A stretch of 20,000 bases of DNA from an uncultured virus (IMG/VR IMGVR_UViG_3300042366_001473) (IMGVR_UViG_3300042366_001473), one strand, 5' to 3'; shown: positions 1 through 17,081, counted from the stretch's first letter. The notes: generated from the letters alone by a model not told the origin. Program-made: numbers and translations.

Positions 1-1230
1 GCTCGGCAAATCATCAATGATCAACTTGACCACAAAATTCAACTGCCGGCACACATCAGCACGCACAATCATCATCAAAGCCATGCAGCCGGAGGTTTTC
101 AAACCAGCCCGTTTGATCGTGCCACTGTAGTTGTAATAGATGCTATTGGTGAATTTGATACTGTAACAATATGGGCAGCTGAATATGATCGAAACAATCA
201 AGCAACTTATCGCAAACTTTGGAGTCAACGGTACCCGCATTCAATTGGACTCTTCTACTCTGCAGCTACTGGCCGCGTTGGCCTACGCCCACTAGACGAA
301 GAATACATACTAATGGGCATGGCCGCTTATGGCGAACGTGGCTTTGGTGAACTTATGAAGCAGGATCTTGTGGAGGATGCCTGGAAAGTTCGTTTTCGTG
401 ATAACTTGCACACAGGACTAACTCACAAATATCTCAGTCACATAGGCGATGTAGATATTGCAGCAGGTGCCCAGGATCTTGTGGAGGACCTAATCATGAA
501 TGTGATGGCTCGTGCCAAAGGATTTGGGTGGAGTCGCAATCTTGTGTACGCAGGTGGAGTTGCGCTAAACTGTAGTGCCAACAGGAGGCTAGGTGAACTA
601 TTTGACAACATTTGGATTATGCCTTGTCCCGGTGATGCCGGCAGCAGTCTGGGTGCTGCCGCATTGGCTCATGGCGGTAGGATCAATTGGCACAATGCTT
701 TTCTGGGTCACAATATTGGCGGTGCCTACCCTGTGAATGAGATTCTAGACGAGCTTGTGTCCTCTCGCATCGTTGGTGTTGCCAGCGGCCGTGCTGAGTT
801 TGGTCCACGAGCACTAGGAAATCGTAGTTTGTTGGCCGATCCTCGCGGCCCTGATATAAAGAATCAAGTAAATGGAATCAAACGTAGACAACAATTTAGA
901 CCCTTTGCGCCGGTTATTTTGGAGGAACTGGCTGATATGTACTTTGATATGCCTCGTGGCTTCGGTAACAGTAGGTATATGCAAGTCATCGCTCGTTGCA
1001 GGCATCCTGACCTATTTCCTGCTATCATTCATGCTGACGGCACTAGTCGTGTACAGACTGTACCCAATGACGGATCCGGTATAAGACAGCTACTGGAAAA
1101 GTGGTATGTAATGACTGGGTGTCCGATGTTGTTAAACACTAGCCTTAACATACGTGGGGAACCTATGGTCAACGATCGCAAAGACGCAGACAGATTTGAA
1201 ACGTTGTATGGTGTAAAGGTTTGCAGCTAA
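1..1230 (+). CDS. O-carbamoyltransferase, NodU/CmcH/TobZ family (5'-truncated by window edge)
   Basis: Frame 1 is open from base 1 and reads ...THNHHQSHAAGGFQTSPF..VVVIDAIGEFDT (Kae1-like metal-binding HHxxH and D-x-x-G motifs). It continues into the tracked ORF with MGMAAYG, AGGVALNC, PGDAGSSLGAA, GRAEFGPRALGNRSLLADP, RPFAP, HADGTSRVQTV and LLNTSLN..GEP, all family signatures. Confidence 0.95.
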   Translation, partial: ARQIINDQLDHKIQLPAHISTHNHHQSHAAGGFQTSPFDRATVVVIDAIGEFDTVTIWAAEYDRNNQATYRKLWSQRYPHSIGLFYSAATGRVGLRPLDEEYILMGMAAYGERGFGELMKQDLVEDAWKVRFRDNLHTGLTHKYLSHIGDVDIAAGAQDLVEDLIMNVMARAKGFGWSRNLVYAGGVALNCSANRRLGELFDNIWIMPCPGDAGSSLGAAALAHGGRINWHNAFLGHNIGGAYPVNEILDELVSSRIVGVASGRAEFGPRALGNRSLLADPRGPDIKNQVNGIKRRQQFRPFAPVILEELADMYFDMPRGFGNSRYMQVIARCRHPDLFPAIIHADGTSRVQTVPNDGSGIRQLLEKWYVMTGCPMLLNTSLNIRGEPMVNDRKDADRFETLYGVKVCS

Positions 1231-1805
1231 TGTTGATTCAATCAGTTGATTCTTGTGGCTATTTGTACTCTGTTGCAGAGGTATTTCCTAGCAATATTTT
1301 GTCACAGATAATATCATGTTCCTGGAACACAATGTCATATCAACGATTGGAGATAGGAAGAAGCAAGCGCAAGATGTTTTGCGGACCTGACCTACCGTTT
1401 TTCTTCGATGTGGAAGATTATGCACGCAAAACTCTACGTCCACAAATTGAACAAGCATGTGGAGTAAGGTTTGTAGATGAAAAGTACTGGAGTCTGAGCT
1501 GGTGGATAGACGAACCCGGCTTTAGACCTGGTATGCACTGTGATGGTACACTGCCATCGGCTATGCAAATATACCTTTTGCCCAACAATGATACCACGAT
1601 AGGTACAACATTTTTCAACACCAATTCAGACAGTGATGTTGTGCATCGATTCCCCAGTGTTACAAACACCGGATACCTGATGTTTAATTCTCACACATGT
1701 GGCGGTGTTAAAAAATTATTATGGCACGATATGGAACGTGAGGTTCCTGAATCAGTGCAACGAATTTGTTGTTACATTACCTTGGGCGAATATACCAAGT
1801 TATAA
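1230..1805 (+). CDS. Putative 2OG-Fe(II) oxygenase-like protein
   Basis: Likely start is the ATG at 1230 (TAATG overlap with the upstream stop). Shows HxD (GMHCD), GTTFF, NTGYLMFN, a distal His (WHDM) and a later Arg, a layout consistent with a DSBH 2OG-Fe(II) dioxygenase. Confidence 0.6.
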   Translation: MLIQSVDSCGYLYSVAEVFPSNILSQIISCSWNTMSYQRLEIGRSKRKMFCGPDLPFFFDVEDYARKTLRPQIEQACGVRFVDEKYWSLSWWIDEPGFRPGMHCDGTLPSAMQIYLLPNNDTTIGTTFFNTNSDSDVVHRFPSVTNTGYLMFNSHTCGGVKKLLWHDMEREVPESVQRICCYITLGEYTKL

Positions 1806-2828
1806 GTAATTTTCAAGCCCACCACGTCGTCGAATATCCTGTGTACAGCAACTGATGCCGCCGTCCCAGAAGTAGCTGTGTCGCAATTCTGAGATAATGG
1901 GATTGATACGATGCTTTTTACAGTAGTCAAACACTTCTTTGTTGTAGGCACTGAAGATCACATTTTGTTCATCTAGCACAAGACAGTTGACATCAAACAC
2001 TGTTTCGGCCACAAAGCCAGTCCACTTGTTCAAGTAAGTGTCCACAAACTTGGTAAACTCTAGTGTAGGAGTTTGACCTTGTACATACCATGCACCAGGG
2101 CTTTGCTCGTATTTGAACTTGCCCACTTCCATTGCTGCCCAGATTGAACTGTCCCAAATCTTGCACACATCCCATCCTGGGAAATCTCTGCCAAGATCTA
2201 GATTCACGTCGTGTTTGCTGCTGAGAATTACACCAGGTTTAAGAATGGCAAAGACAGCATCACCGTGTCCGTCTGTGACTGCTTCGTGTATGCGATATTC
2301 GGGACCCAACACATTGTCCACAATCCAACGAGTTTGATCGGGTCGTAGGAAGTCTGAGTTGTCAAAGAACACATCTCGACCCACACGTACAATGCAACTA
2401 GCACTGGCACCATTGAGAATGCAATCCGAATCCCACCGACTGGTGTGAGGGTTGACCACTTGATCGCCGTACCTACTGCAAATTGTGTCTAGCTCTTCCA
2501 TGTTGAGCACACGTAACAATTTGTTGCCCAGCGTAATCTGCCAATCGCGAGGTGTCAATGGCGGCAGCGGAGCACCTCCTCCTTCGGTTTGATGCCAAAC
2601 AAAGTTGTCCTTGCCAGGCAAGTCTGGTCGATGTACAGTGGCACCGTACCGTTCGATGGTGCGGCAAAGATTGTCAAGATCTTCTTCTGTCTCAGCTAGG
2701 ATTTGCTGCAACTGATTGCGCACCTGTGGATTGTCAATGAAGTCAAAATAGTCTGGTGTGTAGGCACGGCCCACAATGACTTCTTCTAGTGGTTGCCATG
2801 ATGTGTAGGAATTAACGGTGTTGTTCAT
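1800..2828 (-). CDS. Amidinotransferase (glycine/inosamine-phosphate amidinotransferase-like, pentein fold)
   Basis: N-terminal VNSYTSWQPLEEVIVGR, then TPRD, HGD..F..LKPG, FDVNCLVLDE and C-terminal RH...WDGGISCCTQDIRR. These match GATM/StrB1-type motifs, including the catalytic His and Cys. Confidence 0.9.
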   Translation of the reverse strand: MNNTVNSYTSWQPLEEVIVGRAYTPDYFDFIDNPQVRNQLQQILAETEEDLDNLCRTIERYGATVHRPDLPGKDNFVWHQTEGGGAPLPPLTPRDWQITLGNKLLRVLNMEELDTICSRYGDQVVNPHTSRWDSDCILNGASASCIVRVGRDVFFDNSDFLRPDQTRWIVDNVLGPEYRIHEAVTDGHGDAVFAILKPGVILSSKHDVNLDLGRDFPGWDVCKIWDSSIWAAMEVGKFKYEQSPGAWYVQGQTPTLEFTKFVDTYLNKWTGFVAETVFDVNCLVLDEQNVIFSAYNKEVFDYCKKHRINPIISELRHSYFWDGGISCCTQDIRRRGGLENYL

Positions 2829-4002
2829 TTATTTTCTCAAGTAAGCTATTTAGGCGTTGGCTCTTGTTGGCCACAAATAATTGTTGGTTGTGTTCTATAT
2901 CTTCCCGAGCCGCAGCAAATAACTCAGGCAATCTGGGTTGAGCTGCTGTAATACTTTGTTGTAGTTGTTTCCATCGTTGAGTATGATTGGTTATGGTGTC
3001 ATAGCTGTTGTCCAACAAGTGATCAAATGTTCTATAACCCAGATCTCGCAGTACTTGAAGACTGCCTACACCACCTGCTACAAAAAACAACTGACCGTGT
3101 TTGATGGGCTTGAAAGTTTTTTCAGTCACAAACGCACCGCCGCTTTGATCCACGTCAAATTGACTTTCCAACACAATCTGACAATAACTGTCTGCGTAGT
3201 ATTTGGGTTCCATTACAGCGTGATTGTTACGATCGCTGTCAGATAGTTCGTCACTGAAATAGGGAGCATCTTTGAGAAATTTTGTGCGATCATGTCTTAG
3301 CCGTGCAATCATATCAACTTCTATTGGGCAGTCAGTGTCGGCCCCTGTGGCTGATTCACAGTAGCTCCAATAGCTGTTATCTAACATGCCGCTGCGATGC
3401 AAATCTGCCATGACAGTGGCTCGCCACCACTTGTGCAGTCTGCTGAGACATGTAAATTCTTTGGTACGATGATCACTGTGCACTGGCAATGGATCAGTTT
3501 CTATGTTGCGCTGATAATACCATAATTCAAAATCATTGAACACCACAAACCCTGGTATGTGTTCAGCAGCACTGTTGGAACTCACAAACACATAACAGTC
3601 AGGCGGCAATTTCAATTGTGCAGCCAGGGTATCTAGCCGTTGTTTGATACGCCGCGGATTGTCGCCTTCGTGATAGTAAAACAACACCCGAATTTTGCCG
3701 TAGTACACTGCCTGAAATACTGCTGTGGGCAGCAAAGTAAAGTAATCTATGCCAAAATCAAAAAATCCTATTCCCACAGGGTAAAAGGTGTTGTCAGGAT
3801 AAGAGTCGTGTATATTGTATATGTTGATATCAACCCCGTGTTGATTGCAGTATTCCTGCAGTCGTAACGGGATAGTATAGGGAAAATGTTTACCAAACTC
3901 TCGCCAGGACTGTGTGTATGGTCTTGCCTGATGCTGTGCAAGTGCAGGGTATATTCTGCCCTTGAGCACTTGATCAGCTACAAAGTTAAAGTTCAATTTC
4001 AT
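2812..4002 (-). CDS. Hypothetical protein, putative glycosyltransferase-like (TEKTFKPI family, paralog 1)
   Basis: 396-aa ORF. Motif FTCLSR...WR...IVLESQF...VTEKTFKPI..GQLF...G..GSL..LRDLGYRTF...LDNSYD is shared with 3986..5116 and 18516..19682. The GT function is inferred from resemblance to the GT10 E-x(n)-TEK motif. Confidence 0.55.
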   Translation of the reverse strand: MKLNFNFVADQVLKGRIYPALAQHQARPYTQSWREFGKHFPYTIPLRLQEYCNQHGVDINIYNIHDSYPDNTFYPVGIGFFDFGIDYFTLLPTAVFQAVYYGKIRVLFYYHEGDNPRRIKQRLDTLAAQLKLPPDCYVFVSSNSAAEHIPGFVVFNDFELWYYQRNIETDPLPVHSDHRTKEFTCLSRLHKWWRATVMADLHRSGMLDNSYWSYCESATGADTDCPIEVDMIARLRHDRTKFLKDAPYFSDELSDSDRNNHAVMEPKYYADSYCQIVLESQFDVDQSGGAFVTEKTFKPIKHGQLFFVAGGVGSLQVLRDLGYRTFDHLLDNSYDTITNHTQRWKQLQQSITAAQPRLPELFAAAREDIEHNQQLFVANKSQRLNSLLEKINEQHR

Positions 4003-5116
4003 TCAGCATCTCATTGAGTTCTTTCCACAGCACAGCTTCAAAGCCGCCACCATAGAAGTGATTCCAGTTGTGTTCAATTACTTCTTGGCACTGAACAAAC
4101 AGGTCTTGTTTGCCCTCTGGCGATAGCTCATCAAGGCTACGCAACAAACTGGCAATGCGTTGGATACGCACATCGTCTTCTGCGTCATCATAGCTTTCGT
4201 CCCATATGCCTTCGAACGTGCGGAACCCATAGCTACGTAAGTATTCCAAACTTCCGCGTGTGCCCACAATCACAAAAGGCATGCCCAGGGCAATGGGCTT
4301 GAAAGTTTTTTCTGTTAAGTGATGTCTACGACCAGTGGCCACAGTTTCTGTCACCAAATACAGCAAGCTTTCTGCACACTGATCAAACAAACTAAGCCAG
4401 CAGCTATGCATGGGATGGTCAGTTTCTCCCTCAAAGTTAATAGGCAAAGACTGTGCAGTAAATACTGATTCAATGTCAGTGTACTTTGTGATCAATGGTT
4501 TGACAGCTTCCAGTATAGAAATGTTTTCAGCTGGACACACAGCAGGGCAACTGACATGATTGTTGGTCATGTTGTTTTTGAATATGTGGTACAGCATTTC
4601 CAGTCTGTGTTTTCGTTCTCCAGCCACAATACGATTGGGCGCAATAAATGTTTTTGTGATCTGTCGTTGTGCAAGGGGCGTAATCAAAAATGTCTTGTCG
4701 TATCCTCGATACCAATCCAGTGCTGCCCATCCGTGAAAAAAGTAGTACAATGGTTTCCATTCAAACTTTTTGCACACTAGATCTACGTTCTCACTGTTGT
4801 ACTCGCTGGTAAGCAGATACCCAGCGTCTTGGACTTTATATTCATGCTGTTTTTTTGACAACGATCGGTCATGTGTGATATCTAAATTATAGTCGTGCAC
4901 TTTGAAAAAAGTATTTGTGTGTATGTTCAAATGTATTGGCTCTTGGTCAAAAAAGAATATATAATTGTGTTCGTGTACATCATCTCTACCGTAGTTCATA
5001 ACGCTGTCTGCATCACTTCTGCCAAATGGTTCGCAGAAGAAAGCCCTAAAGCCTGGGCGGTTGGCTTTTAACCAAGGCCAAAATGTATTGTTGTAAATTT
5101 CATCTATTCTAAGCAT
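3986..5116 (-). CDS. Hypothetical protein, putative glycosyltransferase-like (TEKTFKPI family, paralog 2)
   Basis: 376-aa ORF with FFDQEPI, YYFFHGWAALDWY, PNR...HR and LVTETV...HLTEKTFKPI..GMPF...G..GSLEYLRSYGFRTF..IWDESYD. Clearly paralogous to 18516..19682. Confidence 0.55.
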   Translation of the reverse strand: MLRIDEIYNNTFWPWLKANRPGFRAFFCEPFGRSDADSVMNYGRDDVHEHNYIFFFDQEPIHLNIHTNTFFKVHDYNLDITHDRSLSKKQHEYKVQDAGYLLTSEYNSENVDLVCKKFEWKPLYYFFHGWAALDWYRGYDKTFLITPLAQRQITKTFIAPNRIVAGERKHRLEMLYHIFKNNMTNNHVSCPAVCPAENISILEAVKPLITKYTDIESVFTAQSLPINFEGETDHPMHSCWLSLFDQCAESLLYLVTETVATGRRHHLTEKTFKPIALGMPFVIVGTRGSLEYLRSYGFRTFEGIWDESYDDAEDDVRIQRIASLLRSLDELSPEGKQDLFVQCQEVIEHNWNHFYGGGFEAVLWKELNEMLNEIEL

Positions 5117-8100
5117 GTTTGACGTATTTTATTTTGCATCGGGACACAAGCCCAATTTGTTTGCTCATGAACGAGCAGTTGAATCTATTCAGCATGCGCA
5201 ACAACTGAGTCGCACAAGGTATTTTTGGATAGCAAACTACTTAGCAGACTACTCAGACTGGGATTGGCTTTATGAGCCACCACCATGGCAAGCACATCAG
5301 CGACATGCATGGTTAGATCAATATCAAATTGATGCAGGTGTTTATCTTATTCCCAAAGCTGGATATACTGAAACAAATTATCACAGCGAGCGCACCGTAC
5401 ACAGACTGCCTGATATCAGCTACTGGCACATACCCAAATGGATTGATCCTGCTAGTATAAACTATACATGGGCACCTAATCCCACAGATCCTCCGTACAT
5501 ATATGAGTTTCCTGTAGAATGGGATTGGGATAGAGTAGGTGGCCCAGAATACCGTGTGCCCGGAGCAACAGAACGCAAATACATGGATGTGTTTGTTGCT
5601 CGTACACAGTCGGATCGCAAAGACTGGCAGACACATGATAACGTAGATGAACATGATCCTGTGTTTAACTGGCACCCAAATCCATTTGATCCTCCAATGA
5701 TTTATGTGTTTGGCAATCAACATTGGCCAGCAGAATCTCGTTCTAGTGTAGAGTATCATGTGCCCGGTGCAACTGTAAAAAAGTACATGCACAATATTCG
5801 TACACAACGACTACCAGACAAAAGTAAATTTTGTTGTTTGTATCCTTGTGAGTTTGATTGGGCCTGGGAACCAGATCCTGGAGATCCGCCTTACATTTAC
5901 GTGTTTGGTAATCAGTGGTGGAGTGCAGAGAAAATGGCCACAGTTGAGTATCACGTCACCGGTGCTACTGAACGCAAATACATGGACATGACTGCCAGGA
6001 TACTTGCGGACAAGACCAACTGGCAAGTACCAGATTATGTTGATCCGTTAAGCGTGGATTATTCTTGGCGGCCTGATCCAGGAGACAACCCTTACATATA
6101 TGAATTTGCTACTCAGTGGCAACCCAATGGCGGTGCTTGTTATGTAGTACCTGGTGCTGTAGAACGCAAGTATGTAGAAATATTGCATCGCAGATTACCT
6201 AATAAACAGTTGTTTAAGAATTTAGAAATTATACAAGGATTTGATTACTCCTGGCATCCTGACAATACAGAACCGCCTTACAATTATGTGTTTGGCAATC
6301 AACATTGGCCAGGTATAGAAATGCCCACTGTGGTTTACGAAATGTCTGGTGCAACACAGGAAAAATTTGTTGACAATGTGGTTGCTCAACTAGGTGACAA
6401 CATGGCCAACTGGGAGTTATGCGAGGATGTTGATAATAGTAGGTGGGACTGGACCTGGGTTCCTAATCCTAAAGATCCACCCTATATTTACGTGTTCGGT
6501 AATCAATGGAATCAGCCAGAGTTCAAAGCCAGTGTCAAGTATGTTGTTCCGGGCGCCATCGAAGTCAAGTACATGGATAGACGCACACGCAGACTGCCGC
6601 AACCACGCCTGTTCGGACATAACCTAGCGGTCAGTGAATTTGACTATTCGTGGGAACCAAATCCTTTTGATCCACCAATGACCTATGTGTTCGGTAACCA
6701 ATGGAACTCGGCTGTACTAGAACCCACAGTAGTGTACAATGCCGGCGGCACTGAAATCAAGTATGTAGATGATATTGTTGCTACACTAGCACAAGACGTG
6801 GCTGCTTGGGAATTGTTGGATGACATTGAATCGTTTGATTACTCCTGGCGGCCCAATCCCACAGATCCTCCTTATACGTATGTGTTTGGTAATCAGTGGC
6901 TCACGCCTGAACAACGTCCCGCATTACAGTATGCAGTAACAGGTGCTACACAAATCAAATACATGGATCATCCGCGAGCACAACGTCGTGGGGATCATAC
7001 ACGGTTTACACAACACTATCCTGCGAGCTTTGATTGGTCGTGGGAACCCGATCCAGGATCACCACCTTATAACTATGTGTTTGGTAATCAGTACTATTCA
7101 GCAGAAGTAATGCCCACTGTAGAATATCACATGCTGGGTGCTACAGAACTCAAGTACATGGATATCCCTGCACAGTTGTTGCCTCAACACGATAATCACT
7201 GGCACACCGTCATAGACTGTGAATGGGATTATACCTGGAGACCCGAACCTGGATCACCACCCTACATCTATGTGTTTGGTAACCAGTGGTGGCCAGCAGA
7301 GAAAATGCCCACTGTAGAATATCACATGCCCAGTGCCACTGAGCGCAAGTACATGACAGGACCGGTTGCTAACTTGTTGACGAATATGACCAATTGGACC
7401 ATTCCTGAATATGTGAACACTACTGATATGGACTTCAGTTGGCAGCCAGACCCAGGCGAACCAGCCTACATCTATCAATTTGCCACACAGCATCAAAAGA
7501 CTGGAGGACCGCAGTATCGCATGCCTGGTGCCACTGAGTTCAAGTATGTGGACATGATGAGGGCAGAAGTCAAGCAAGAAGCTGCACCTATATTTGAAAT
7601 TGATCACCTGGATGGCAACGCAGGGCAAATTCCAGATGTAGTTAAAAAAGTACGTTACTTTGACAACTACAGAGATACACTAATACGTTTGGCCCGGAGC
7701 CTTGTGGGGCAATACGAGCATGTGTGGATATGCAGTTCAATTTGCGATTACACTGGCTTTGACTTTTCATGGCACCCAGAGATCTGGCAAAGTACAATGT
7801 TGCATGTATTCCCCAGCAATGAACAAAAGTTTGGGGACACATTCTACATGCATGTACCTACCTTTGCCGAACGTGCCGAAAAGAAAGCTTTGCTGGAATG
7901 GTATAGTGTGAACTATGTATCCCGCCGGAGTGTACCACGTAGATCCATGCCTGTGATTGAACACACTGCTGATTCGCATGTGGATGCAGTCAAGAATGTA
8001 GATTGGGCCGGACCCTTGGCATTGTTCACCACAAATGGTGTGCCTATCACAATGCCCACCGTTCCTCTTTGGCGTCAAGAAGTCAAAACTATTGTGCCGT

Positions 8101-8918
8101 TGAGCACAGGTGCCAGTGCAGTGATTGTGCCAAAAGTAGCTCGAGGTGATGTTAAAACGCAACTGTACGATTATGCACATATTGACAAGACACAACGTAA
8201 ACGTCATGGCGATCAGCCACTGGACATTGTGTTTATCAGCAATGGCGAACCCAATTCTGCATCTAATTATTTGCAAATGCAGATGTATCTAGCCAACTCA
8301 TCACATACCAACAAAGTACATATGGTATCAGGAGTAAAAGGTCGTGTGGCAGCTTATCATGCGGCAGCACGAGCCAGTACCACACCTTGGTTCTTTGCTG
8401 TGTTTGCCAAGTTAGAAGTTGACGCCAAGTTTGATTGGACCTGGCAGCCAGATCGTATGCAACAGCCCAAGCACTATATCTTTCATGCTGGCAATCCTGT
8501 CAATGGATTGGTGTATGGTCACCAAGCCATGATTGCCTACAACAAGAAGTTGGCGTTGGAGAACACAGGTGTTGGCCTGGACTTTACGCTAGATCAGGCG
8601 CACGAAGTTGTACCTATTCTCAGTGGCACAGCCAACTATGCTGAATCGCCTTGGATGGCCTGGCGCACAGCTTTCCGTGAAGCACTTAAACTACGTGCAA
8701 GTTTACCCAACGTGGAAAATGAATACAGACTCAATGTCTGGTTAAAAGAAGACTCCGGCACCATTGCCAATGGACATTGGAGTCATAAAGGCGCACAGGA
8801 TGCTGTGGAGTACTATGAAGAGGTCAAAGGTGATCCCACTGAGCTCCGCAAGAGCTACGAGTGGGATTGGCTCGCAAGCTATGCGTTTGTCAAACGTTCT
8901 TTAACACCTGATCAGTGA
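5115..8918 (+). CDS. Large W/P-rich tandem-repeat protein with degenerate GT-A/GT2-like terminal domains
   Basis: 1267-aa ORF with 11 internal repeats. The C-terminal domain DIVFISNGEP...GVKGRVAAYHAAARASTTPWFFAVFAKL...NPVNGLVYG...AWRTAFREALKL resembles phage GT2-like domains. Confidence 0.7.
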   Translation: MFDVFYFASGHKPNLFAHERAVESIQHAQQLSRTRYFWIANYLADYSDWDWLYEPPPWQAHQRHAWLDQYQIDAGVYLIPKAGYTETNYHSERTVHRLPDISYWHIPKWIDPASINYTWAPNPTDPPYIYEFPVEWDWDRVGGPEYRVPGATERKYMDVFVARTQSDRKDWQTHDNVDEHDPVFNWHPNPFDPPMIYVFGNQHWPAESRSSVEYHVPGATVKKYMHNIRTQRLPDKSKFCCLYPCEFDWAWEPDPGDPPYIYVFGNQWWSAEKMATVEYHVTGATERKYMDMTARILADKTNWQVPDYVDPLSVDYSWRPDPGDNPYIYEFATQWQPNGGACYVVPGAVERKYVEILHRRLPNKQLFKNLEIIQGFDYSWHPDNTEPPYNYVFGNQHWPGIEMPTVVYEMSGATQEKFVDNVVAQLGDNMANWELCEDVDNSRWDWTWVPNPKDPPYIYVFGNQWNQPEFKASVKYVVPGAIEVKYMDRRTRRLPQPRLFGHNLAVSEFDYSWEPNPFDPPMTYVFGNQWNSAVLEPTVVYNAGGTEIKYVDDIVATLAQDVAAWELLDDIESFDYSWRPNPTDPPYTYVFGNQWLTPEQRPALQYAVTGATQIKYMDHPRAQRRGDHTRFTQHYPASFDWSWEPDPGSPPYNYVFGNQYYSAEVMPTVEYHMLGATELKYMDIPAQLLPQHDNHWHTVIDCEWDYTWRPEPGSPPYIYVFGNQWWPAEKMPTVEYHMPSATERKYMTGPVANLLTNMTNWTIPEYVNTTDMDFSWQPDPGEPAYIYQFATQHQKTGGPQYRMPGATEFKYVDMMRAEVKQEAAPIFEIDHLDGNAGQIPDVVKKVRYFDNYRDTLIRLARSLVGQYEHVWICSSICDYTGFDFSWHPEIWQSTMLHVFPSNEQKFGDTFYMHVPTFAERAEKKALLEWYSVNYVSRRSVPRRSMPVIEHTADSHVDAVKNVDWAGPLALFTTNGVPITMPTVPLWRQEVKTIVPLSTGASAVIVPKVARGDVKTQLYDYAHIDKTQRKRHGDQPLDIVFISNGEPNSASNYLQMQMYLANSSHTNKVHMVSGVKGRVAAYHAAARASTTPWFFAVFAKLEVDAKFDWTWQPDRMQQPKHYIFHAGNPVNGLVYGHQAMIAYNKKLALENTGVGLDFTLDQAHEVVPILSGTANYAESPWMAWRTAFREALKLRASLPNVENEYRLNVWLKEDSGTIANGHWSHKGAQDAVEYYEEVKGDPTELRKSYEWDWLASYAFVKRSLTPDQ
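5459..7553 (+). repeat. 11 in-frame tandem repeats of ~195 bp / 65 aa
   Basis: Consensus FDYSW.P.P..PPY.YVFGNQ.W.....PTV.Y..PGATE.KYMD. The GNQ codons start at 5712, 5907, 6294, 6498, 6693, 6888, 7083 and 7278, mostly 195 bp apart. Confidence 0.95.
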
Positions 8919-9993
8919 CATATTCCACATCTAAGTCTGACAACTCAGGATAGATAGGCAAACTCAACACACGCTGGCTCAGTGCAGTGGCTACACTCAT
9001 CATGTTGGGCCCGGGGAATTGTCTCAACACAGAGTTATCGTGCAAGGGTTGCTCATAGTGTATTCGTGTGTCAATACTGGCGTTCCACAGTTTCTCTTGC
9101 AGTCGATTGCGCTGATCAACATCAATCACAAACTTGTGAAACGCATGATTGTGCTCATTGTGTTCGTTGATCAAACAGCGTATGCTGGTATTTGCAAATC
9201 GTTCACACATGTAGGCAGCAATCCGGCGACGACGAGCTTGCCATTGATCAATGTACTGTGTTTTGACCATCATGTGTGCACAATCCAGTTCGCTCATGCG
9301 ACTGTTGCTGCCACCACGTTCGGCCTTGTAGTCACCTTTGTTGTGATTGCGCCAGGCTCGTGCAAAGTCTGCTAGATCCTGGTTGTCTGTGACCACTGCA
9401 CCACCGTTGCCATAACAGGCCAAGTTCTTCATGGGGTCAAAACTGATGGCGCTGCCTTCGCCGACTCGTTGGCTATTGTTGCCTAACCAATGTTGTGCAG
9501 CATCTTCAATCACTGTGACATTGTTGTGTAACCAATGTGTCCAGGCCTTTACAGAATGAGCGTGGGAAATAGCAGCGCCATACAAACCAACCAACACTAT
9601 GGCTTGATAATCAAGGTCTTGGGGGATTTTATCAGGGTCAAGCAACCCGTTGACATCCACGTCTACAAAGTGTACGTCCCAACCAGCTCGCAAGAACGCA
9701 TTGGCCGTGGCCACAAACGTCAAGCTAGGGATCAACACTCTTGGCGACTTATTGGTTAGTTCTAGTCCACGCCAATATTCGGCTATAATTTCCAAGGCCT
9801 GTGTGCCCGAGTGGCAAGTCACAGCATTTTTGCCACCGTTCCTAACAGCCAGCCAGTTTTCAAACTTCTGAGTCCAGGCGCCGTTCATGAGCTGACCTGA
9901 TTGCAGTACCTGATCAGTTGCGTCTAGAATCTCCTCGCGGAGTTGTTTATACTGTCTTTGGAGACCAGTAAACGGAATTCGAAAGCCAGTCAT
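8890..9993 (-). CDS. DegT/DnrJ/EryC1/StrS family PLP-dependent (nucleotide-sugar) aminotransferase
   Basis: Motifs SGTQAL, PSLTFVATANA, IEDAAQ, SFDPMKNL (PLP Lys), GNGGAVVT, NSRMSEL, HY..PLH and VLSLPIYPEL. Confidence 0.95.
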   Translation of the reverse strand: MTGFRIPFTGLQRQYKQLREEILDATDQVLQSGQLMNGAWTQKFENWLAVRNGGKNAVTCHSGTQALEIIAEYWRGLELTNKSPRVLIPSLTFVATANAFLRAGWDVHFVDVDVNGLLDPDKIPQDLDYQAIVLVGLYGAAISHAHSVKAWTHWLHNNVTVIEDAAQHWLGNNSQRVGEGSAISFDPMKNLACYGNGGAVVTDNQDLADFARAWRNHNKGDYKAERGGSNSRMSELDCAHMMVKTQYIDQWQARRRRIAAYMCERFANTSIRCLINEHNEHNHAFHKFVIDVDQRNRLQEKLWNASIDTRIHYEQPLHDNSVLRQFPGPNMMSVATALSQRVLSLPIYPELSDLDVEYVTDQVLKNV

Positions 9994-10915
9994 AATACTT
10001 TTGGAATCCTTCTTCTACATCAACTTTGGGATCGTAGCCTAGTATGGTCCTGGCACGATCAATGTTCAGTGCACCGCGACTGGGAAAGTCTGCATCTTTG
10101 TCTCGAGTTTCGATCTCACCCTTGCCCACAATCTTCACAATCATCTCTGCGGCTTCTAACAAACTAACTGAATGCGATTTAGTAATGTTGTAGGTATTGT
10201 TACGAGCCATGATACGAGTAGCGGCTGCTACAATACCATCAGCGGCATCATCTACATAGGTAAAGTCTAACGTCTCCCCTGCCCCATTAACTCGGAGAAC
10301 GCTACCTCGCATGGCTCCGAGCATAAATTTTGCAACGACCCTGTCTTCCACATCCAGTGGCCCGTATACAGCACTAGGCCTAATAACAGCGTAATCGAAA
10401 GCACCGCGACGATGGTAGTCTTTGACAAGGTCTTCTCCAGTTAATTTTAAGATGCCATATTGTCCAATGGGTCGGCAGTCGTAGTCTTCTTCTACTTGAT
10501 CTTCAAAATCACCATACACCATTGAACTAGATATGTACACAACACGTTCTACATTGTGCTTTTTGGCACTCTCACAAACGTTGATCAACCCTTCCATCAT
10601 AACACGACTGCCCCAGGCAGGGTTAGCATTGACAACTTTCTGTCGGGGAAAACTTGCCATGTGAATGATTACTTCGGGCTTGTGTTTGCCTACCAACCAG
10701 TCAAAGTCTTCGGCATTGGTAATGTCAATGTGATAGATGTTGTTGCCTGATATCTTCTTTAACCGCTCGCCCATCAAGTAATCAAGTTCTGCTTGTGGAA
10801 TAATTCCGTAGTTGGTACGAGTGTCTGTGATGATCACTTCGTGATCTCGGGCTTCTAGTCTTTGCACTACATTGTGACCAATTAACCCTAGTCCGCCTGT
10901 TACTAATATTTTCAT
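9947..10915 (-). CDS. NAD-dependent nucleotide-sugar epimerase/dehydratase (extended SDR)
   Basis: MKILVTGGLGLIG (GxxGxxG), ISSSMVYG, YGILK (YxxxK), RPSAVYGP and DFTYVDD. Confidence 0.95.
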   Translation of the reverse strand: MKILVTGGLGLIGHNVVQRLEARDHEVIITDTRTNYGIIPQAELDYLMGERLKKISGNNIYHIDITNAEDFDWLVGKHKPEVIIHMASFPRQKVVNANPAWGSRVMMEGLINVCESAKKHNVERVVYISSSMVYGDFEDQVEEDYDCRPIGQYGILKLTGEDLVKDYHRRGAFDYAVIRPSAVYGPLDVEDRVVAKFMLGAMRGSVLRVNGAGETLDFTYVDDAADGIVAAATRIMARNNTYNITKSHSVSLLEAAEMIVKIVGKGEIETRDKDADFPSRGALNIDRARTILGYDPKVDVEEGFQKYYDWLSNSVYWSPKTV

Positions 10916-11241
10916 TTGTTACCCCACTTTAATGTCCAAAAGATTTGATCCTGCTCACTTAATCTTGCTATGATGCGGTACATGTGTCCATACGTGTGCG
11001 GATCTATGCTACGAGTCCAGTAAGGTTTATCCTTGGCATGCTCCATTATAAACTTACCAGCATCTGATTCTTGCCACCTCCAAATTGGTTCAGCAACCAT
11101 TAAATCCGGATCTTCTACGTCGCCCATGCGGATCTCGTGTACACATACGTCACGAAACTTTACAGCTCGGTCTCCAATGAGTTCAACCCGTTCAGGCTGC
11201 CATTGCTTGTATTCGTCTGGATAATTGGTTGTTATTGCCAT
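10912..11241 (-). CDS. Hypothetical phage protein
   Basis: 109-aa ORF with an ATGA overlap onto the epimerase start and a promoter-like element directly upstream. Confidence 0.75.
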   Translation of the reverse strand: MAITTNYPDEYKQWQPERVELIGDRAVKFRDVCVHEIRMGDVEDPDLMVAEPIWRWQESDAGKFIMEHAKDKPYWTRSIDPHTYGHMYRIIARLSEQDQIFWTLKWGNK

Positions 11242-11246
11242 ACACT

Positions 11247-11275
11247 AGTATAGCACAAGTGTTAGTCTTTAGCAA
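11247..11275 (-). promoter_or_regulatory. sigma70-like promoter, TTGCTA-17-TATACT with extended -10 TG
   Basis: Minus strand reads TTGCTA AAGACTAACACTTGTGC TATACT AGTGT ATG. The -10 is only 5 nt from the start codon at 11241. Confidence 0.6.
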
Positions 11276-11954
11276 CCAAGTCGGCAGCCATTGGGAAGAT
11301 TTTGGCAATAACTTGTGCACATGCGCGAGCCACTTCCATGTGCTCTTTTTGTGTACCATTGCCTGATCGCAGTTCAATAAAATGAATCCAGCTACGCAAG
11401 GTACCGTTCATATACATGCGACTCACTGTGAGTCCTTCGGGCAACACAGCACGGGCCTGTTCTTTGGCAATGCCGTTCTTGATGGCCCATGCATATTCTT
11501 GTTTGACACTGAACAACACACGTTTTTGCGCACGTTCCCATTCAATGGCCAACAGCCGTTGAGCTTCGTCTGCCATGTCCAATTCTACGCTATTCTGTCG
11601 ATTCTTGGTGTCTTGGAATCGTGCCTCACGTAGCACAAACGCCTCATCGAGTTCAGCTGTAGGATCAGCATATCGCTGGGAGAACTCTTGAAAGCTGAAA
11701 CTTCTGTGACGTAGAATCTGTCGGGCAATGTCGCGGGTGGTGACGATTTCGCAACAGGCTGACACCATTTCCAGTGGGCTCCAGTGTTGGTGTCGGACCA
11801 AGTATCGGATAAGTCTTTCGCTGGTATCGGTTGTGAACTGGTTGGCAGGGTTGGACACACGGGCACAATAGGCAATAAGCTCTTGTGCATCATCGATGCC
11901 TTGGGTTCTAAATGCGTCGGTTGGCTGTGAATATGATACAAGGGTAACATTCAT
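11262..11954 (-). CDS. thyX: FAD-dependent thymidylate synthase
   Basis: ThyX signature RHRSFSFQEFSQRY, plus AYCARVS, HWSPLE, AKEQARAVLP, NGTLRSWIHFIELR and TQKEH. Confidence 0.96.
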   Translation of the reverse strand: MNVTLVSYSQPTDAFRTQGIDDAQELIAYCARVSNPANQFTTDTSERLIRYLVRHQHWSPLEMVSACCEIVTTRDIARQILRHRSFSFQEFSQRYADPTAELDEAFVLREARFQDTKNRQNSVELDMADEAQRLLAIEWERAQKRVLFSVKQEYAWAIKNGIAKEQARAVLPEGLTVSRMYMNGTLRSWIHFIELRSGNGTQKEHMEVARACAQVIAKIFPMAADLVAKD

Positions 11955-12253
11955 AGATTTTTCAATAATTTATCAGTCTCGGGTTGAACAAGTTCTGCAA
12001 CTAGCACAGTGTCAACCACAAATTCAATATCTCTGACTTGTTGATCAAGTTCCAGCAAGGTTCTGGTAAGGACTACTTCAATTTCTACAATGTCCAGACC
12101 CTGCTTTCGTAACACATCAAGATTTATGGTTCGTTGTCGCTTGCCATGCATCTTGATGATAATTTTTTTGAGACACTCAAGTGGAACTTCGGTCTTGGGC
12201 GCTTCCTTGATTAAATGTTCCCACTTGTCAAGAAATTCATCACTGAACTGCAT
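11951..12253 (-). CDS. Hypothetical phage protein
   Basis: 100-aa ORF that overlaps both neighbours (ATGA overlap with thyX). Confidence 0.75.
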   Translation of the reverse strand: MQFSDEFLDKWEHLIKEAPKTEVPLECLKKIIIKMHGKRQRTINLDVLRKQGLDIVEIEVVLTRTLLELDQQVRDIEFVVDTVLVAELVQPETDKLLKNL

Positions 12254-12983
12254 TGGTAGCCGCTACTTTGGGTTTGCGACCACGACGCACTGCTGGCTCG
12301 GCTTTGACTTCTTGAACAACAGGAGCAACGCCGCTGTTTGTTGTCACTCCTGGGTGCATACGTTCGGCATCTTTTTTCATTCTGGCAGCTTCAGCAATCA
12401 AGCCCTTGGCTTCAATTTCCATTTTCTTGGCTTGAGCCAACATGTTGGATGCCAGTGATTTGTCGTCCAGTGCCGAATCTGAACCAGCGGGCACTGGTGG
12501 CAGGCCTTGCTGTGATCTGGCAGCCTCTTGTTCAAGTCTGCGCTTTTTGAATTCTTGTTCTTGCTGACGTTTGGTAGCAGGATCCACTATGCCTGTGTTG
12601 GCATCCAGTTCGGTCATGCGCTTGCGAGCGTCGTCGCCGCTTTCCATTTCTTTGACCAGTCTGTTGAGTTCGTCTAACTTGACTGAGCTAGTGGCAGTGG
12701 GTGTCACAATCACTTGATTTGTGGCAATCTTTTTCAGCATGCCTTCGCGATGCAAGGCCTCCAAGATAGGACGACCGTCGGGCAGCAAGTTGCGATGAAA
12801 CACGTCTGCCAGTGTGGTGGCTGCTTGTCCTGGTGCACTCTCCAACACGCTCAACACTGAGTTGTGAATATGCGTGGGAAGTACGTCGGGATATACCACA
12901 AGGCACATATGGTCCTCGCCTGGGATCTGTCTGAATACAATTGCAACCTTGCGGTCTCCGTGTCTACCTATGTGTTTAAGCAT
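12240..12983 (-). CDS. Hypothetical phage protein with helical/coiled-coil C-terminus and basic tail
   Basis: 247-aa ORF with a GGAG SD upstream, an A/K/E-rich helical segment and RRGRKPK near the end. Confidence 0.8.
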   Translation of the reverse strand: MLKHIGRHGDRKVAIVFRQIPGEDHMCLVVYPDVLPTHIHNSVLSVLESAPGQAATTLADVFHRNLLPDGRPILEALHREGMLKKIATNQVIVTPTATSSVKLDELNRLVKEMESGDDARKRMTELDANTGIVDPATKRQQEQEFKKRRLEQEAARSQQGLPPVPAGSDSALDDKSLASNMLAQAKKMEIEAKGLIAEAARMKKDAERMHPGVTTNSGVAPVVQEVKAEPAVRRGRKPKVAATNAVQ

Positions 12984-14208: not shown

Positions 14209-15489
14209 TTAGTCTTTTGCATCTTCGTAGTAGGCGTAAGTGCCCCAGGGTGGAACAATGCTGGTGGTACCATGCAAGATCCAGGTAGCATCACAGTAGT
14301 TTTCGTCGCCCCAGCTGCCAAACGGATAGCCGTCTGTAAACACTACTAATCGACGTGGTTGGATGTCCTCATTTTTCAAGTAGCGATAGATAGCATCAAA
14401 GTCTGTGCCGCCACCGCCTGCTGGCTCGTAGTCCACAATTGAATCCAAGTTGTCACTATCGTACTGAACAGGATTGTAAGTGTCGGTGTCAAAACTCACA
14501 ATGTGAATCTTGTATGCTGGGAACGAGTCCATGATACCTTGGATCTCGCCCAAGAAGTCTTTGAGCATTTTCTCGCCAATCGAACCTGAAGTGTCGATTG
14601 CAATAGCAATGTCAATCATTTCGTCGTTTTTGCGACCTGGCATCACTGCATCCATGTGCCATCCACGACGGCTAGGACGCATCCAGGTGTAGTCACTCTT
14701 GATAGTGCTCTCCAAGTTCATACGCAACAGTTCACGCCAGTTCATCTGTGGTTCTGTAAGCTCTTTGATCATGCGCATTACGCCTGCAGGAATGTTACCT
14801 GCACCGTCTGTGGTCTGAGCGGCAGCCAACATGGCTTCTTTGATCTCGTCCTTGATGGCCTGACGATCTGCGGCACTGAGTTGGGGACGACCTTTGCCTT
14901 TGCCTTCTTGATCACCATCACCATCACCGTCGGCATCACCATCACCGTCCAAGTGCTCGTCGATCAGTTTATCCAGTAAATCGCCGATGTCAATTTTGTC
15001 TGCTTTTTCGTACAAAATGTCATAGATCTCTTCTGAGCTCATGCCATCATACTTGGGATCGTGCAGGCAAGGCACTGTGGTAATCTTTTCTCCCACACGG
15101 TGCTTGATCAAGTCTGCGTTGACAGCAAAGTCATTGGCAATGTTGAACAACTGCGGGTCTCGATCTCCGCGGCGTCCAAAGTGGTCATAAACGCAATGCA
15201 AGACCTCGTGTCCAAACAAAAATTCGATCTCTCTGGGACGCAACATCTGAATGAAACGGCTGTTGTAGTAGAAGTGGCGACCATCTGTGGCCGCTGTTGA
15301 GCACCACTCATCGGCGTTGACCAGTTTGAGACGGGTGGCCAAATTGCCAAAAAAGCTGGCACGAAGCAGTAAACCCACTCGAGCAGTAATCAGTTTTTCG
15401 CGAACCTCTCGATCAACTTTGGCGTCAGTTGGACCCAGTAGATTGGCAAACTTTTTCTTGTCGTCTTTGGTCTGTGTAGTGGAAGTCAT
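14209..15489 (-). CDS. Putative metallopeptidase (HEXXH) fused to vWA domain (DUF2201-like)
   Basis: TAATDG, HEVLH and N.A.D..VN in the N-terminal domain; a D/G-rich linker; C-terminal MIDAS motifs DTSGS, GGGGTDF and VFTDG. Confidence 0.9.
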   Translation of the reverse strand: MTSTTQTKDDKKKFANLLGPTDAKVDREVREKLITARVGLLLRASFFGNLATRLKLVNADEWCSTAATDGRHFYYNSRFIQMLRPREIEFLFGHEVLHCVYDHFGRRGDRDPQLFNIANDFAVNADLIKHRVGEKITTVPCLHDPKYDGMSSEEIYDILYEKADKIDIGDLLDKLIDEHLDGDGDADGDGDGDQEGKGKGRPQLSAADRQAIKDEIKEAMLAAAQTTDGAGNIPAGVMRMIKELTEPQMNWRELLRMNLESTIKSDYTWMRPSRRGWHMDAVMPGRKNDEMIDIAIAIDTSGSIGEKMLKDFLGEIQGIMDSFPAYKIHIVSFDTDTYNPVQYDSDNLDSIVDYEPAGGGGTDFDAIYRYLKNEDIQPRRLVVFTDGYPFGSWGDENYCDATWILHGTTSIVPPWGTYAYYEDAKD

Positions 15490-16430: not shown

Positions 16431-16727
16431 TCAAGGTAATACTTGAGTATTAAGATTTAGATACTTTAACTGAAACCAAGATTGTGCAGAATCCGAGTAG
16501 AAATCTAGGTGTACTTGGTCTTCGTAGTACATGGTAGGACCATCTTTCCGGGGGGTTGTGTTGGGCACCAACCCCCGGTGATATCTGTACACAAAACCCA
16601 GTTCACGACGCAGCCGCGGTCTCACTGCCATGCCCATGCCATAATCCTGCAGAATACGTGCATACACCTCTGACCATTCACCGGGACGATGAAACACAAT
16701 CAGATTTTTTTTAATTGTGATTTTCAT
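16431..16727 (-). CDS. Hypothetical phage protein
   Basis: 98-aa ORF overlapping the upstream gene by 17 nt. Confidence 0.7.
   Translation of the reverse strand: MKITIKKNLIVFHRPGEWSEVYARILQDYGMGMAVRPRLRRELGFVYRYHRGLVPNTTPRKDGPTMYYEDQVHLDFYSDSAQSWFQLKYLNLNTQVLP
16436..16453. promoter_or_regulatory. Palindromic operator-like site GTAATACT-TG-AGTATTAA
   Basis: 7+7 inverted repeat with a 2-nt spacer; matches the site at 18476-18493 at 15 of 16 arm positions. Confidence 0.5.
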
Positions 16728-17049
16728 TGGGATTACTTAATACAAACCAGTTTAGTTCTTTGTCTGTGCCCACATAGATTCTATAATCGTTGTACTTGGC
16801 AGAGTATGCCCAATAAGGGTTAATATCATCGGGCTCAGCTCGTAACGGATTGGCACTGCCACTTCGGATCATGGCCAAACGAGTTTCGACATCTTGGCTC
16901 CACCCAAATGTTTTATTAAACCATTTCCGAGCATGATCAAAATCTAATACACCGGTTCCTTTCCAATGAGACTTTGAAAATTCAATCATGAATTGAAAAT
17001 ACTCTTTCTGGCTATATCGCTTGTCGAGTTTGGTAACTTTGTACTTCAT
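16711..17049 (-). CDS. Hypothetical phage protein
   Basis: 112-aa ORF directly downstream of the AAA ATPase terminator. Confidence 0.7.
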   Translation of the reverse strand: MKYKVTKLDKRYSQKEYFQFMIEFSKSHWKGTGVLDFDHARKWFNKTFGWSQDVETRLAMIRSGSANPLRAEPDDINPYWAYSAKYNDYRIYVGTDKELNWFVLSNPNENHN

Positions 17050-17052
17050 AAT

Positions 17053-17077
17053 AAAAAAGCGGTATTTCTACCGCTTT
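17053..17077 (-). terminator. Rho-independent terminator after the AAA ATPase (possibly bidirectional)
   Basis: Minus strand AAAGCGGTA-GAAA-TACCGCTTTTTT: a 9-bp stem, GNRA loop and U-tract, 4 nt after the stop codon. The plus strand also has a T-rich tail. Confidence 0.8.
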
Positions 17078-17081
17078 CTTT

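Follow-up and report, generated by a model that had tools for sequence, protein, structure and literature searches.

An amidinotransferase gene packed with sugar-modifying enzymes and glycosyltransferases in an uncultured T4-like phage

Some viruses glycosylate their own particles: Mimivirus has the 4,6-dehydratase R141, the aminotransferase L136 and glycosyltransferases for its fibrils, PBCV-1 encodes glycosyltransferases for its major capsid protein, and Freeman and colleagues reportedly described capsid and tail glycosylation of mycobacteriophages in 2023. Here we describe an island of sugar-modifying and glycosyltransferase (GT) genes, including an amidinotransferase (AmT), in a 20,000-nt stretch of DNA (hereafter the window) from the uncultured virus IMGVR_UViG_3300042366_001473 (IMG/VR). 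Like the systems above, the island encodes its own short-chain dehydrogenase/reductase (SDR) and DegT-family aminotransferase, together with several soluble GTs near structural genes. It differs from them in having no SDR of the 4,6-dehydratase type and no detected N-acyltransferase; it adds the AmT, a carbamoyltransferase and five N-twitch radical S-adenosylmethionine (SAM) proteins, and its GT families have no Pfam model. We tentatively favour the view that its soluble enzymes tailor nucleotide sugars and transfer them to a soluble acceptor, preferably a virion protein.

A similar mix occurs in the cultured T4-like cyanophage S-SCSM2R (PQ898602), in which genes for 2-oxoglutarate (2OG) oxygenases, several GTs, a DegT-family protein, a radical-SAM protein and an amidinotransferase are likewise packed together. 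One stretch of that phage carries KdsB, KdsA, a 'glycine amidinotransferase' and a 2OG gene; in another, ORF301–310 follow the order 2OG, GT, GT25, GT, DegT-family, radical SAM, GT, 2OG, 'inosamine amidinotransferase', GT2. ORF266 is 29.6% identical to the window AmT, while ORF309 represents another AmT subfamily and keeps the FDAAN aspartate that the window AmT does not. The DegT-like protein of the cyanophage is short (about 195 aa), its GTs are of GT2, GT25 and other types, and its annotated stretches, unlike the island, contain neither a carbamoyltransferase nor an SDR.

In the available portion of PMC12801897, the DegT-family, radical-SAM and amidinotransferase genes of S-SCSM2R are listed as 'antibiotic synthesis genes' and others as cell-wall genes, without biochemistry; it was the only paper we found that discusses phage amidinotransferases, supplements lying outside the search. 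An earlier note on this DNA had known of no described phage pathway combining such enzymes, a claim that this listing narrows. Two further candidate sources were discarded, PMC11360552 (which discusses GAMT instead) and PMC10484667 (where the word amidinotransferase is used for QueF), and PMC12619734, as far as its available text goes, deals with another lineage of jumbo phages. Our searches turned up nothing published on NF033640 or on phage enzymes of the N-terminal twitch radical-SAM type. Glycan synthesis encoded by viruses is a known phenomenon; its version with an amidinotransferase, a carbamoyltransferase and N-twitch radical-SAM proteins is, in the literature found, only annotated and not studied.

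Packing, gene order and recurrence of the island

The window is the minus strand of bases 232–20231 of a 349,369-bp virus record (G000), 97% complete according to CheckV. The record carries a T4-like core (gp23, gp20, prohead protease, sheath, baseplate, T4-type terminase and tail genes), and the phage origin of the window is confirmed. The terminase shares 52% identity with that of Pseudomonas phage PA5oct and about 50% with the Phosso and Atu_ph07 enzymes. In 20 lake-water metagenome runs, 69% or more of the words sampled from window positions 1–10000 were present, and no RNA run was among those listed; the cultured-phage collection held no near-identical DNA.

Long open reading frames (ORFs) fill window positions 1–12983, and neighbouring ones overlap throughout, by 2 to 47 nt, in agreement with the gap-free packing described in the earlier note. 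Each gene class named there (carbamoyltransferase, 2OG-like, amidinotransferase, DegT, SDR and GT-like) was also found in its place. Pfam, PHROG and NCBIfam scans directly identify four of the genes (carbamoyltransferase, DegT, SDR and ThyX), and five ORFs (1221–1805, 1800–2828, 2812–4002, 3986–5116 and 5115–8918) have no Pfam family. The island extends for about 13 kb past the window start, to occupy G000 9.3–33.4 kb in all; this outer part holds, on the same strand, the remainder of the carbamoyltransferase gene, U1, five N-twitch radical-SAM genes, a second SDR (U3), two GT-B genes (U5 and U9) and one GT-A gene (U12).

A scan of IMG/VR viral contigs returned 168 AmT relatives, and island proteins were compared by tblastn with the best 80 of these 168 loci (AmT identity 82–92%, contigs up to 364 kb), any high-scoring segment pair (HSP) being counted as a hit and misses including loci truncated by the end of a contig or by the 10-kb limit of the flank. 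The AmT was hit in all 80 loci, the carbamoyltransferase and each GT-B in 79, the repeat/GT-A protein in 71, the SDR in 66 and the DegT in 64, with U1, U2, U6, U7 and U8 hit in 70, 72, 73, 73 and 72, respectively. Order and orientation were the same in 12 of 12 loci inspected, with a variable slot between the AmT and the carbamoyltransferase. Because the same order recurs in 80 IMG/VR loci, the arrangement is not due to chance, and the check for co-occurrence in related phages that had been suggested earlier gives a positive answer.

Independent examples of amidinotransferases associated with sugar and GT genes come from a second AmT family, from S-SCSM2R and from a second locus of G000. The second family (query ORF309; 333 viral relatives) is 22–26% identical to the first; around the best 80 of its 333 members we found short DegT-like genes in 73 loci, 2OG genes in 69, GTs in 61–63 and the window's carbamoyltransferase family in 28. 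N-twitch radical-SAM genes were present in 13–14 of them, and of the window's GT families GT-B was seen in 12 and GT-A in 6. None of these 80 loci contained the DegT, 2OG or U1 families of the window itself. Since AmT genes of two families are joined with DegT-like, 2OG and GT genes, and since gene ends overlap, the amidino acceptor would fall within sugar or glycan chemistry. We also chose five relatives on the basis of their terminase: AmT-family genes occur in three, with four copies in one (G002), and at E ≤ 1e-5 every one of the five shows 3–16 N-twitch radical-SAM matches. Both the AmT and the GT-B family are missing from a complete 524-kb relative. The second AmT of G000 (203985–206636) is 34% identical to S-SCSM2R ORF309 and follows a 2OG oxygenase and a UDP-Glc/GDP-Man dehydrogenase; Pfam returned no family for the 2OG and AmT ORFs there.

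Families and folds of the encoded enzymes

The AmT (342 aa, window 1800–2828, minus strand) is of the AGAT/StrB1 type. In phmmer searches of PDB sequences it matched AGAT (3.1e-17), StrB1 (6.3e-12), HsvA (2.2e-10) and SxtG (4.2e-10), the similarity to solved amidinotransferases covering the full length in three stretches (residues 5–106, 143–206 and 278–342), and a profile of 31 relatives reached 7.9e-18. As in StrB1 and AGAT, the cysteine, the histidine and two substrate-binding aspartates are kept: C327, H188, D190 and D95 align with AGAT C407, H303, D305 and D170 and are invariant in the 31 relatives, and C327, H188 and D190 are also invariant across eight divergent phage AmTs. The third member of the AGAT triad, D254, has no aspartate counterpart; its position is taken by an invariant S142 when the HMMER alignment is extended without gaps, and by an invariant N139 when aligned with MAFFT to seven divergent phage homologues, which keep the aspartate in this column. 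The amidinotransferase of the earlier note is a real family member, with its triad aspartate replaced by Asn139 or Ser142. It further differs from StrB1 and AGAT in its low identity and its length (348–423 aa in those enzymes), and Pfam scans found no inosamine pathway in G000. No Pfam family at E ≤ 0.01 and no NCBIfam model matched the AmT, and its sole PHROG match is phrog_25854 (function not annotated, 4e-12). It is the most conserved island gene compared (80 of 80 loci, median identity 86%), it has 3787 cluster representatives at E ≤ 1e-5, some of them named 'glycine amidinotransferase' by JGI, and its start overlaps the 3' end of the preceding GT-B gene (2812–4002) by 17 nt. Given the strong constraint (86% median identity and wide occurrence), we treat it as an enzyme that is probably active with an altered triad.

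The carbamoyltransferase (window 1–1230, plus strand) comprises the C-terminal 409 aa of a 495-aa ORF, whose 5' part, coding for the N-terminal 86 aa, lies outside the window and reaches G000 20489. It shares both Pfam domains with the NodU/CmcH/TobZ enzymes, and both exceed their gathering scores (Carbam_trans_N, 3.2e-34, 119.3 bits against a cut-off of 24; Carbam_trans_C, 3.2e-46, 157.4 bits against 27); it also matches phrog_1601, 'Nol-like carbamoyltransferase', at 1.7e-82. Its score for the NCBIfam NodU equivalog (129.8 bits) is far under the cut-off of 1000. NodU/TobZ enzymes are O-carbamoyltransferases. The adjoining 194-aa protein (window 1221–1805, plus strand) has a 2OG-Fe(II)-oxygenase fold according to Atlas, with a feature score of 0.95 to a PF13640 cluster and a model TM of 0.78 to a PF13640 cluster passing the naming threshold; the Atlas sequence begins at residue 4, and translation probably begins at the ATG at 1230, which overlaps the stop codon of the carbamoyltransferase gene. 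It contains a single HxD (H106-C-D108), with the distal histidine of the HxD...H triad left unassigned, and neither Pfam nor PHROG gave a match. The oxygenase proposed earlier is present as a protein with this predicted fold, but it was seen in only 4 of the 80 related loci and is an accessory gene.

The DegT/DnrJ/EryC1/StrS protein (367 aa, window 8890–9993, minus strand), a sugar aminotransferase dependent on pyridoxal phosphate (PLP), belongs to its family by a full-length Pfam match (6.3e-67, 226.8 bits, positions 2–359 of 360) and by the PLP lysine motif SFxxxK (SFDPMK) at residue 184. Its best NCBIfam model is PseC (164 bits, under the cut-off of 423.5), and no NCBIfam equivalog reaches its cut-off. 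The neighbouring SDR (322 aa, window 9947–10915, minus strand) is an extended, epimerase-type enzyme (Pfam Epimerase, 6.7e-43), whose best PDB match is 6zl6, an 'Epimerase domain-containing protein' (3.6e-27) that we take to be a UDP-glucuronate 4-epimerase; U3 is most similar to GDP-fucose synthase. In 4,6-dehydratases an acid/base pair, T-D-E or T-S-E, precedes the YxxxK motif. All three SDRs of the genome instead carry SSS/SSA-x-(V/I)Y at this point (ISSSMVYG, with YGILK, in the window SDR, YSSSACIY in U3 and FSSSAAVYG in the third), and they do not belong with the dehydratases. The earlier proposal that the SDR makes the keto sugar for DegT conflicts with these epimerase-type motifs and with the epimerase being the nearest solved relative of the window SDR; because no SDR has the dehydratase pair, the keto substrate of DegT would come from host intermediates or from another enzyme. 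Elsewhere in the genome, at G000 311.4–320 kb, genes for an SDR, a DegT-like protein of 200 aa with SFxxxK, a further GT-B paralog, GTP cyclohydrolase I, PTPS/QueD, an unassigned ORF and a B12-binding radical-SAM protein are clustered; together they might make a glycosylated pterin or deazaguanine derivative.

Three GT-B proteins of the window form one family in alignment, with R194, E279, E294 and K295 invariant: a 396-aa protein (2812–4002, minus strand) with a fucosyltransferase-like E..TEK motif, a 376-aa paralog (3986–5116, minus strand) that is 23% identical to it and shares the invariant residues, and a 388-aa paralog (18516–19682, plus strand; tblastn of the 376-aa protein, 1e-28). U5 and U9 are paralogs of the same family. 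The AlphaFold2 (AF2) model of the 396-aa protein (pLDDT 89.3, pTM 0.88) predicts a GT-B fold of two Rossmann domains, with 50 Foldseek matches at E ≤ 0.001, those listed being GT-B enzymes or GT-B-like proteins, and 47 chains at VIA Z ≥ 8, the leading ones effectively tied (T4 BGT 12.1, the alpha1,3-fucosyltransferase 5zoi 11.9, EXT1-EXT2 11.2 and T4 AGT 10.3). The fold is thus common to the island GT-B, the T4 beta- and alpha-glucosyltransferases and the GT10 alpha1,3-fucosyltransferases, at Z 10.3–12.1. An E..EK motif is typical of fucosyltransferases, and the E..TEK and arginine invariants resemble what we take to be the donor-binding residues of GT10. Identity to the T4 and GT10 enzymes is only 9–10%, and the phage lacks a hydroxymethyl-pyrimidine pathway. 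GT10 membership found no support in Pfam, where Glyco_transf_10 gave no match; the Atlas score of 0.79 to GT10 clusters is a lead only, and the Z of 11.9 to 5zoi is tied with those of enzymes outside GT10. A tblastn search of phages with the 396-aa protein returned no match, and the family profile found nothing meaningful among PDB sequences (best E 1.4).

The 1267-aa protein (window 5115–8918, plus strand) consists of tandem repeats followed by a C-terminal two-lobed domain. There are about 11 repeats of 62–68 aa (W-x-P-x-P-x-D-P-P-Y-x-Y-x-F-G-N-Q ...), and the length varies in relatives, whose HSPs begin at query residues 1 to 761. The C-terminal domain (AF2 pLDDT 85.2) is predicted to contain a GT-A (nucleotide-diphospho-sugar transferase) core at residues about 1032–1187 (window 8208–8675, plus strand), with VIA Z of 12.2–8.6 over model residues about 198–353, including B4GALNT1 (12.2), WrtF (11.1) and the PBCV-1 capsid-glycosylating GT (9.7). 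Foldseek matched the core to HddC, LH3, ArnC, Mimivirus R699 and the PBCV-1 capsid GT; nucleotidyltransferases, which share the GT-A fold, are also among the structural matches of the domain. The family carries an invariant F-A-K (F263, A264 and K265 in the alignment) at the usual DXD position of GT-A enzymes. For the C-terminal part there are 4443 cluster representatives at E ≤ 0.001, and the 120 listed among them contain no Pfam domain; in tblastn against phages the protein gave one weak C-terminal match, in Ralstonia phage RsoM2USA. U12 is a GT-A family paralog. A Pfam LAG1-DNAbind match of the repeat protein (28.3 bits, 0 stretches, residues 258–279) was rejected as spurious, being caused by the repeat motif. 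Repeat number (window 5115–7605) varies among relatives, forms of 437–687 aa being common in metagenomes. At window 5114–5117 the 376-aa GT-B gene (minus strand) and the 1267-aa gene (plus strand) begin back to back, their start codons overlapping by 2 nt, which implies either promoters inside coding sequence or true starts further in. A tetratricopeptide-repeat (TPR) protein with a GT9-like C-terminal match (G000 87829–89040, minus strand), directly after gp23 on the opposite strand, is a candidate protein glycosyltransferase.

The five N-twitch radical-SAM proteins of the island score 277–389 bits against NCBIfam NF033640, 'twitch domain-containing radical SAM protein' (cut-off 170). Nine paralogs above this cut-off occur in G000 (at 21.6–31.6, 137.6–139.9, 150.3–151.5 and 221.6–222.7 kb), and there were none in 14 control genomes; G000 also has a NifU-like scaffold gene (L095:5494–5919). 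Four co-directional genes lie upstream of the SDR (window 10912–12983, minus strand), encoding a 109-aa protein, ThyX (11262–11954; full-length Pfam Thy1 match, 6.6e-41, and phrog_85), a 100-aa protein and a 247-aa protein, which keep their order in 62, 59, 53 and 52 of the 80 loci, respectively. U1 (347 aa, beside the carbamoyltransferase) gave no PDB sequence match and no Pfam match across 31 members (best E 0.021). No membrane segments were predicted in the island proteins, save for the doubtful N-terminus of one ORF.

Proposed chemistry and its acceptor

In the pathway that we propose, the host would supply nucleotide sugars and the epimerase-type SDRs would interconvert them; a keto sugar, taken from the host or formed by a radical-SAM enzyme (for which a BtrN-like twitch radical-SAM dehydrogenase is presumably a possible model), would be turned into an amine by DegT. 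The AmT would then cap this amine, with arginine as donor, to give a guanidino group in place of the usual N-acylation, and the carbamoyltransferase would add a carbamoyl group from carbamoyl phosphate and ATP. Four fucosyltransferase-like GT-B and two GT-A-like enzymes would build a short glycan on a virion protein, for example one of the fibre or baseplate proteins whose genes directly precede the island on its strand, and the phage particle would thereby acquire a cationic, unusual glycan coat. Pfam scans of the window and upstream ORFs detected no acyltransferase family beside DegT or in the island, which makes amidino or carbamoyl capping of the sugar amine a reasonable guess. No PF00483 nucleotidyltransferase was found in G000. 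The more specific proposition, that an abundant clade of lake jumbo phages and, separately, marine T4-like cyanophages make guanidino-sugar glycans on their fibre or baseplate proteins by means of a dedicated Cys-His-Asn AmT, carbamoylate them and remodel them with an expanded N-twitch radical-SAM family, appears doubtful to us.

Virion proteins are the favoured acceptor because the enzymes are soluble, no lipid-carrier machinery is encoded, and the island stands in line with structural genes: upstream on the same strand are genes for a 594-aa structural-like protein, a 4900-aa virion structural protein, and baseplate wedge and hub proteins. The site TATAAATA lies 27 nt upstream of the 594-aa gene, as the same motif does upstream of baseplate and tail-sheath genes, and this too argues for a virion target. 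So does the detection, reported in the available portion of PMC12801897, of the S-SCSM2R AmT homologue ORF266 and the 2OG protein ORF269 in the purified-virion proteome. Fold matches to virus capsid- and collagen-glycosylating enzymes (the PBCV-1 GT, Mimivirus R699 and LH3) count in the same direction; the S/T-richness of the giant proteins is uninformative.

Several observations weigh against virion glycosylation by this route. The chemistry is read from gene neighbourhood, and the 80 close loci, all from a single clade, do not count as independent samples. No SDR is of the dehydratase type, and the keto sugar would have to come from elsewhere. The AmT lacks the triad aspartate, as far as sequence alignment tells, and matches no curated family; its acceptor could be an amino acid or a polyamine, with AGAT as its best solved relative and HsvA matched, and its median identity of 86%, compared with 50–59% for the GTs and DegT, would also fit a free-standing metabolic enzyme. 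Because NodU/TobZ enzymes carbamoylate oxygen, the carbamoyl and amidino groups need not be on the same sugar. Family scans assigned no family to U1, U4, U11 or the 109-, 100- and 247-aa genes. The T4 late-promoter motif TATAAATA is not enriched genome-wide (15 found against 20.5 expected), its positions alone being suggestive, and read-through across the island would span about 20 kb. The AmT neighbours in S-SCSM2R (Kdo genes and an LPS-type GT25), together with the GT8, GT25 and GT9-like genes of G000, point to the host envelope.

That envelope is the acceptor in an alternative that we hold to be possible, if unlikely: a host glycan such as lipopolysaccharide (LPS) core, O-antigen or exopolysaccharide would be remodelled with amino, guanidino or carbamoyl sugars, which could block superinfection or keep progeny off debris. 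In S-SCSM2R the AmT homologue adjoins KdsA and KdsB, the second stretch has a GT25, and such genes are filed under cell-wall synthesis and modification in the portion of PMC12801897 at hand. In G000, Pfam scans identified further sugar genes outside the island (GT8, GT25, the TPR-GT9-like gene beside gp23, GT2, the UDP-Glc/GDP-Man dehydrogenase and a cytidylyltransferase-cupin fusion), and its envelope-directed host-like genes include a porin, CsgG/CsgF and TctC. Because the GTs of the LPS core work as soluble or peripheral enzymes, the absence of membrane segments from the island does not exclude such a target. Against it, G000 has no Bac_transf priming enzyme, Pfam scans gave no flippase, polymerase or ligase family, the island lies within a strand run of structural genes, and the AmT and 2OG homologues of S-SCSM2R turn up in virion preparations (PMC12801897, available portion). 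The AmT could also be a free-standing metabolic gene making guanidinoacetate, homoarginine or an amidinated polyamine, for DNA packaging or nitrogen handling, and sit among glycan genes by accident. The glycine amidinotransferase and HsvA matches, the JGI label, the four AmT-family genes of G002 and an identity that is the highest in the island, as expected if the substrates are universal metabolites, all suit this idea; we nevertheless consider it improbable, since the AmT start overlaps a GT-B gene, both AmT families sit among DegT-like, 2OG and GT genes (160 loci), and the second AmT of G000 adjoins a nucleotide-sugar dehydrogenase.

Two further products were considered. In aminoglycoside tailoring, roles are played by DegT enzymes, a twitch radical-SAM enzyme (BtrN-like), 2OG enzymes, an amidinotransferase (StrB1), a carbamoyltransferase (TobZ) and GTs. 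The island set parallels this one, and antibiotic synthesis has been proposed for the S-SCSM2R genes (PMC12801897, portion available), but an aminoglycoside-like or other diffusible guanidino/carbamoyl small molecule is quite improbable. Pfam scans of 18 window ORFs, 19 upstream ORFs and 237 further ORFs of at least 140 aa contained no aminocyclitol-forming enzyme, neither a 2-deoxy-scyllo-inosose synthase nor an inositol-phosphate synthase family, which speaks against the aminoglycoside-type pathway suggested earlier. The same scans (island and 237 other ORFs) showed no polyketide synthase, nonribosomal peptide synthetase, exporter or self-resistance family, six GT genes exceed the needs of such pathways, and the NCBIfam equivalogs are all far under their cut-offs; lacking cyclitol synthase, scaffold and export genes in these scans, a diffusible antibiotic is unlikely. 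The earlier note had also offered phage DNA as a target. Hypermodification with a glycosylated or guanidinylated base, as a defence against restriction or CRISPR, would accord with the T4 beta- and alpha-glucosyltransferases among the top GT-B structural matches (Z 12.1 and 10.3) and with ThyX in the same operon; radical-SAM and PLP enzymes take part in thymidine hypermodification. It is very improbable all the same: those structural matches are in a tie, to about 1–2 Z units, with fucosyltransferases and exostosins, an E..EK motif typical of fucosyltransferases is present in the GT-B family, the ThyA-family hydroxymethylase PF00303 has no match in G000 (it was detected in 10 of 14 control genomes), ThyX is an ordinary enzyme by its full-length matches, implying normal dTMP, and genome scans gave no Pfam family of DNA glycosyltransferases. 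From the earlier interpretation, the enzyme families, their co-occurrence and the link of the amidinotransferase to sugar and GT genes are retained; the SDR keto-sugar step, the aminoglycoside pathway and the DNA target are not.

Genomic surroundings and significance

The window and the genome record differ at 17 positions, all inside window 16559–17403 (845 nt), and are identical elsewhere. A DUF2201 metallopeptidase/VWA protein (14209–15489) and a MoxR-like AAA ATPase (17082–18164) form a pair (phrog_1314 and phrog_1297). Between 205 and 350 kb, G000 has many host-like genes: a Gram-negative porin, CsgG, CsgF, three TctC-family receptors, a PstS-like binding protein and a CHASE2-cyclase, as well as two ClpP, ClpX, ClpB, DnaJ, Hsp20, SOD, ferritin, peroxiredoxin, NAD synthase and PhoH. 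This gene set points to a Gram-negative host. A profile search of genome contigs found one AmT locus only, at 83% identity, on the 148-kb contig NZ_JBBAKG010000003.1, filed under a metagenome-assembled genome of Haliscomenobacter; it probably represents phage DNA that was binned with a bacterium, and as a hint to the host it is weak at best.

Virus-encoded glycan synthesis has so far come from giant viruses and a few phages, to which the island adds new chemistry: we know of no glycoconjugate in which amidino transfer, carbamoylation and an N-twitch radical-SAM array are part of the chemistry. The genes are very common in environmental data (3787 cluster representatives for the AmT and 4443 for the GT-A domain), and the presence of the same module mix in a cultured cyanophage makes the proposals testable at the bench. 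Were the AmT instead to make a small metabolite, an auxiliary metabolic gene that is widespread would so far have gone unrecognised. If the guanidino-sugar reading is true, these phages would offer new enzymes for making guanidino sugars, and a virion glycan of this kind, with no guanidino-sugar glycoconjugate known before it from any organism, would extend phage surface chemistry by a new layer. Should virions or infected cells indeed carry a cationic glycan, it would bear on adsorption, host range, particle stability, and grazing or immune recognition.

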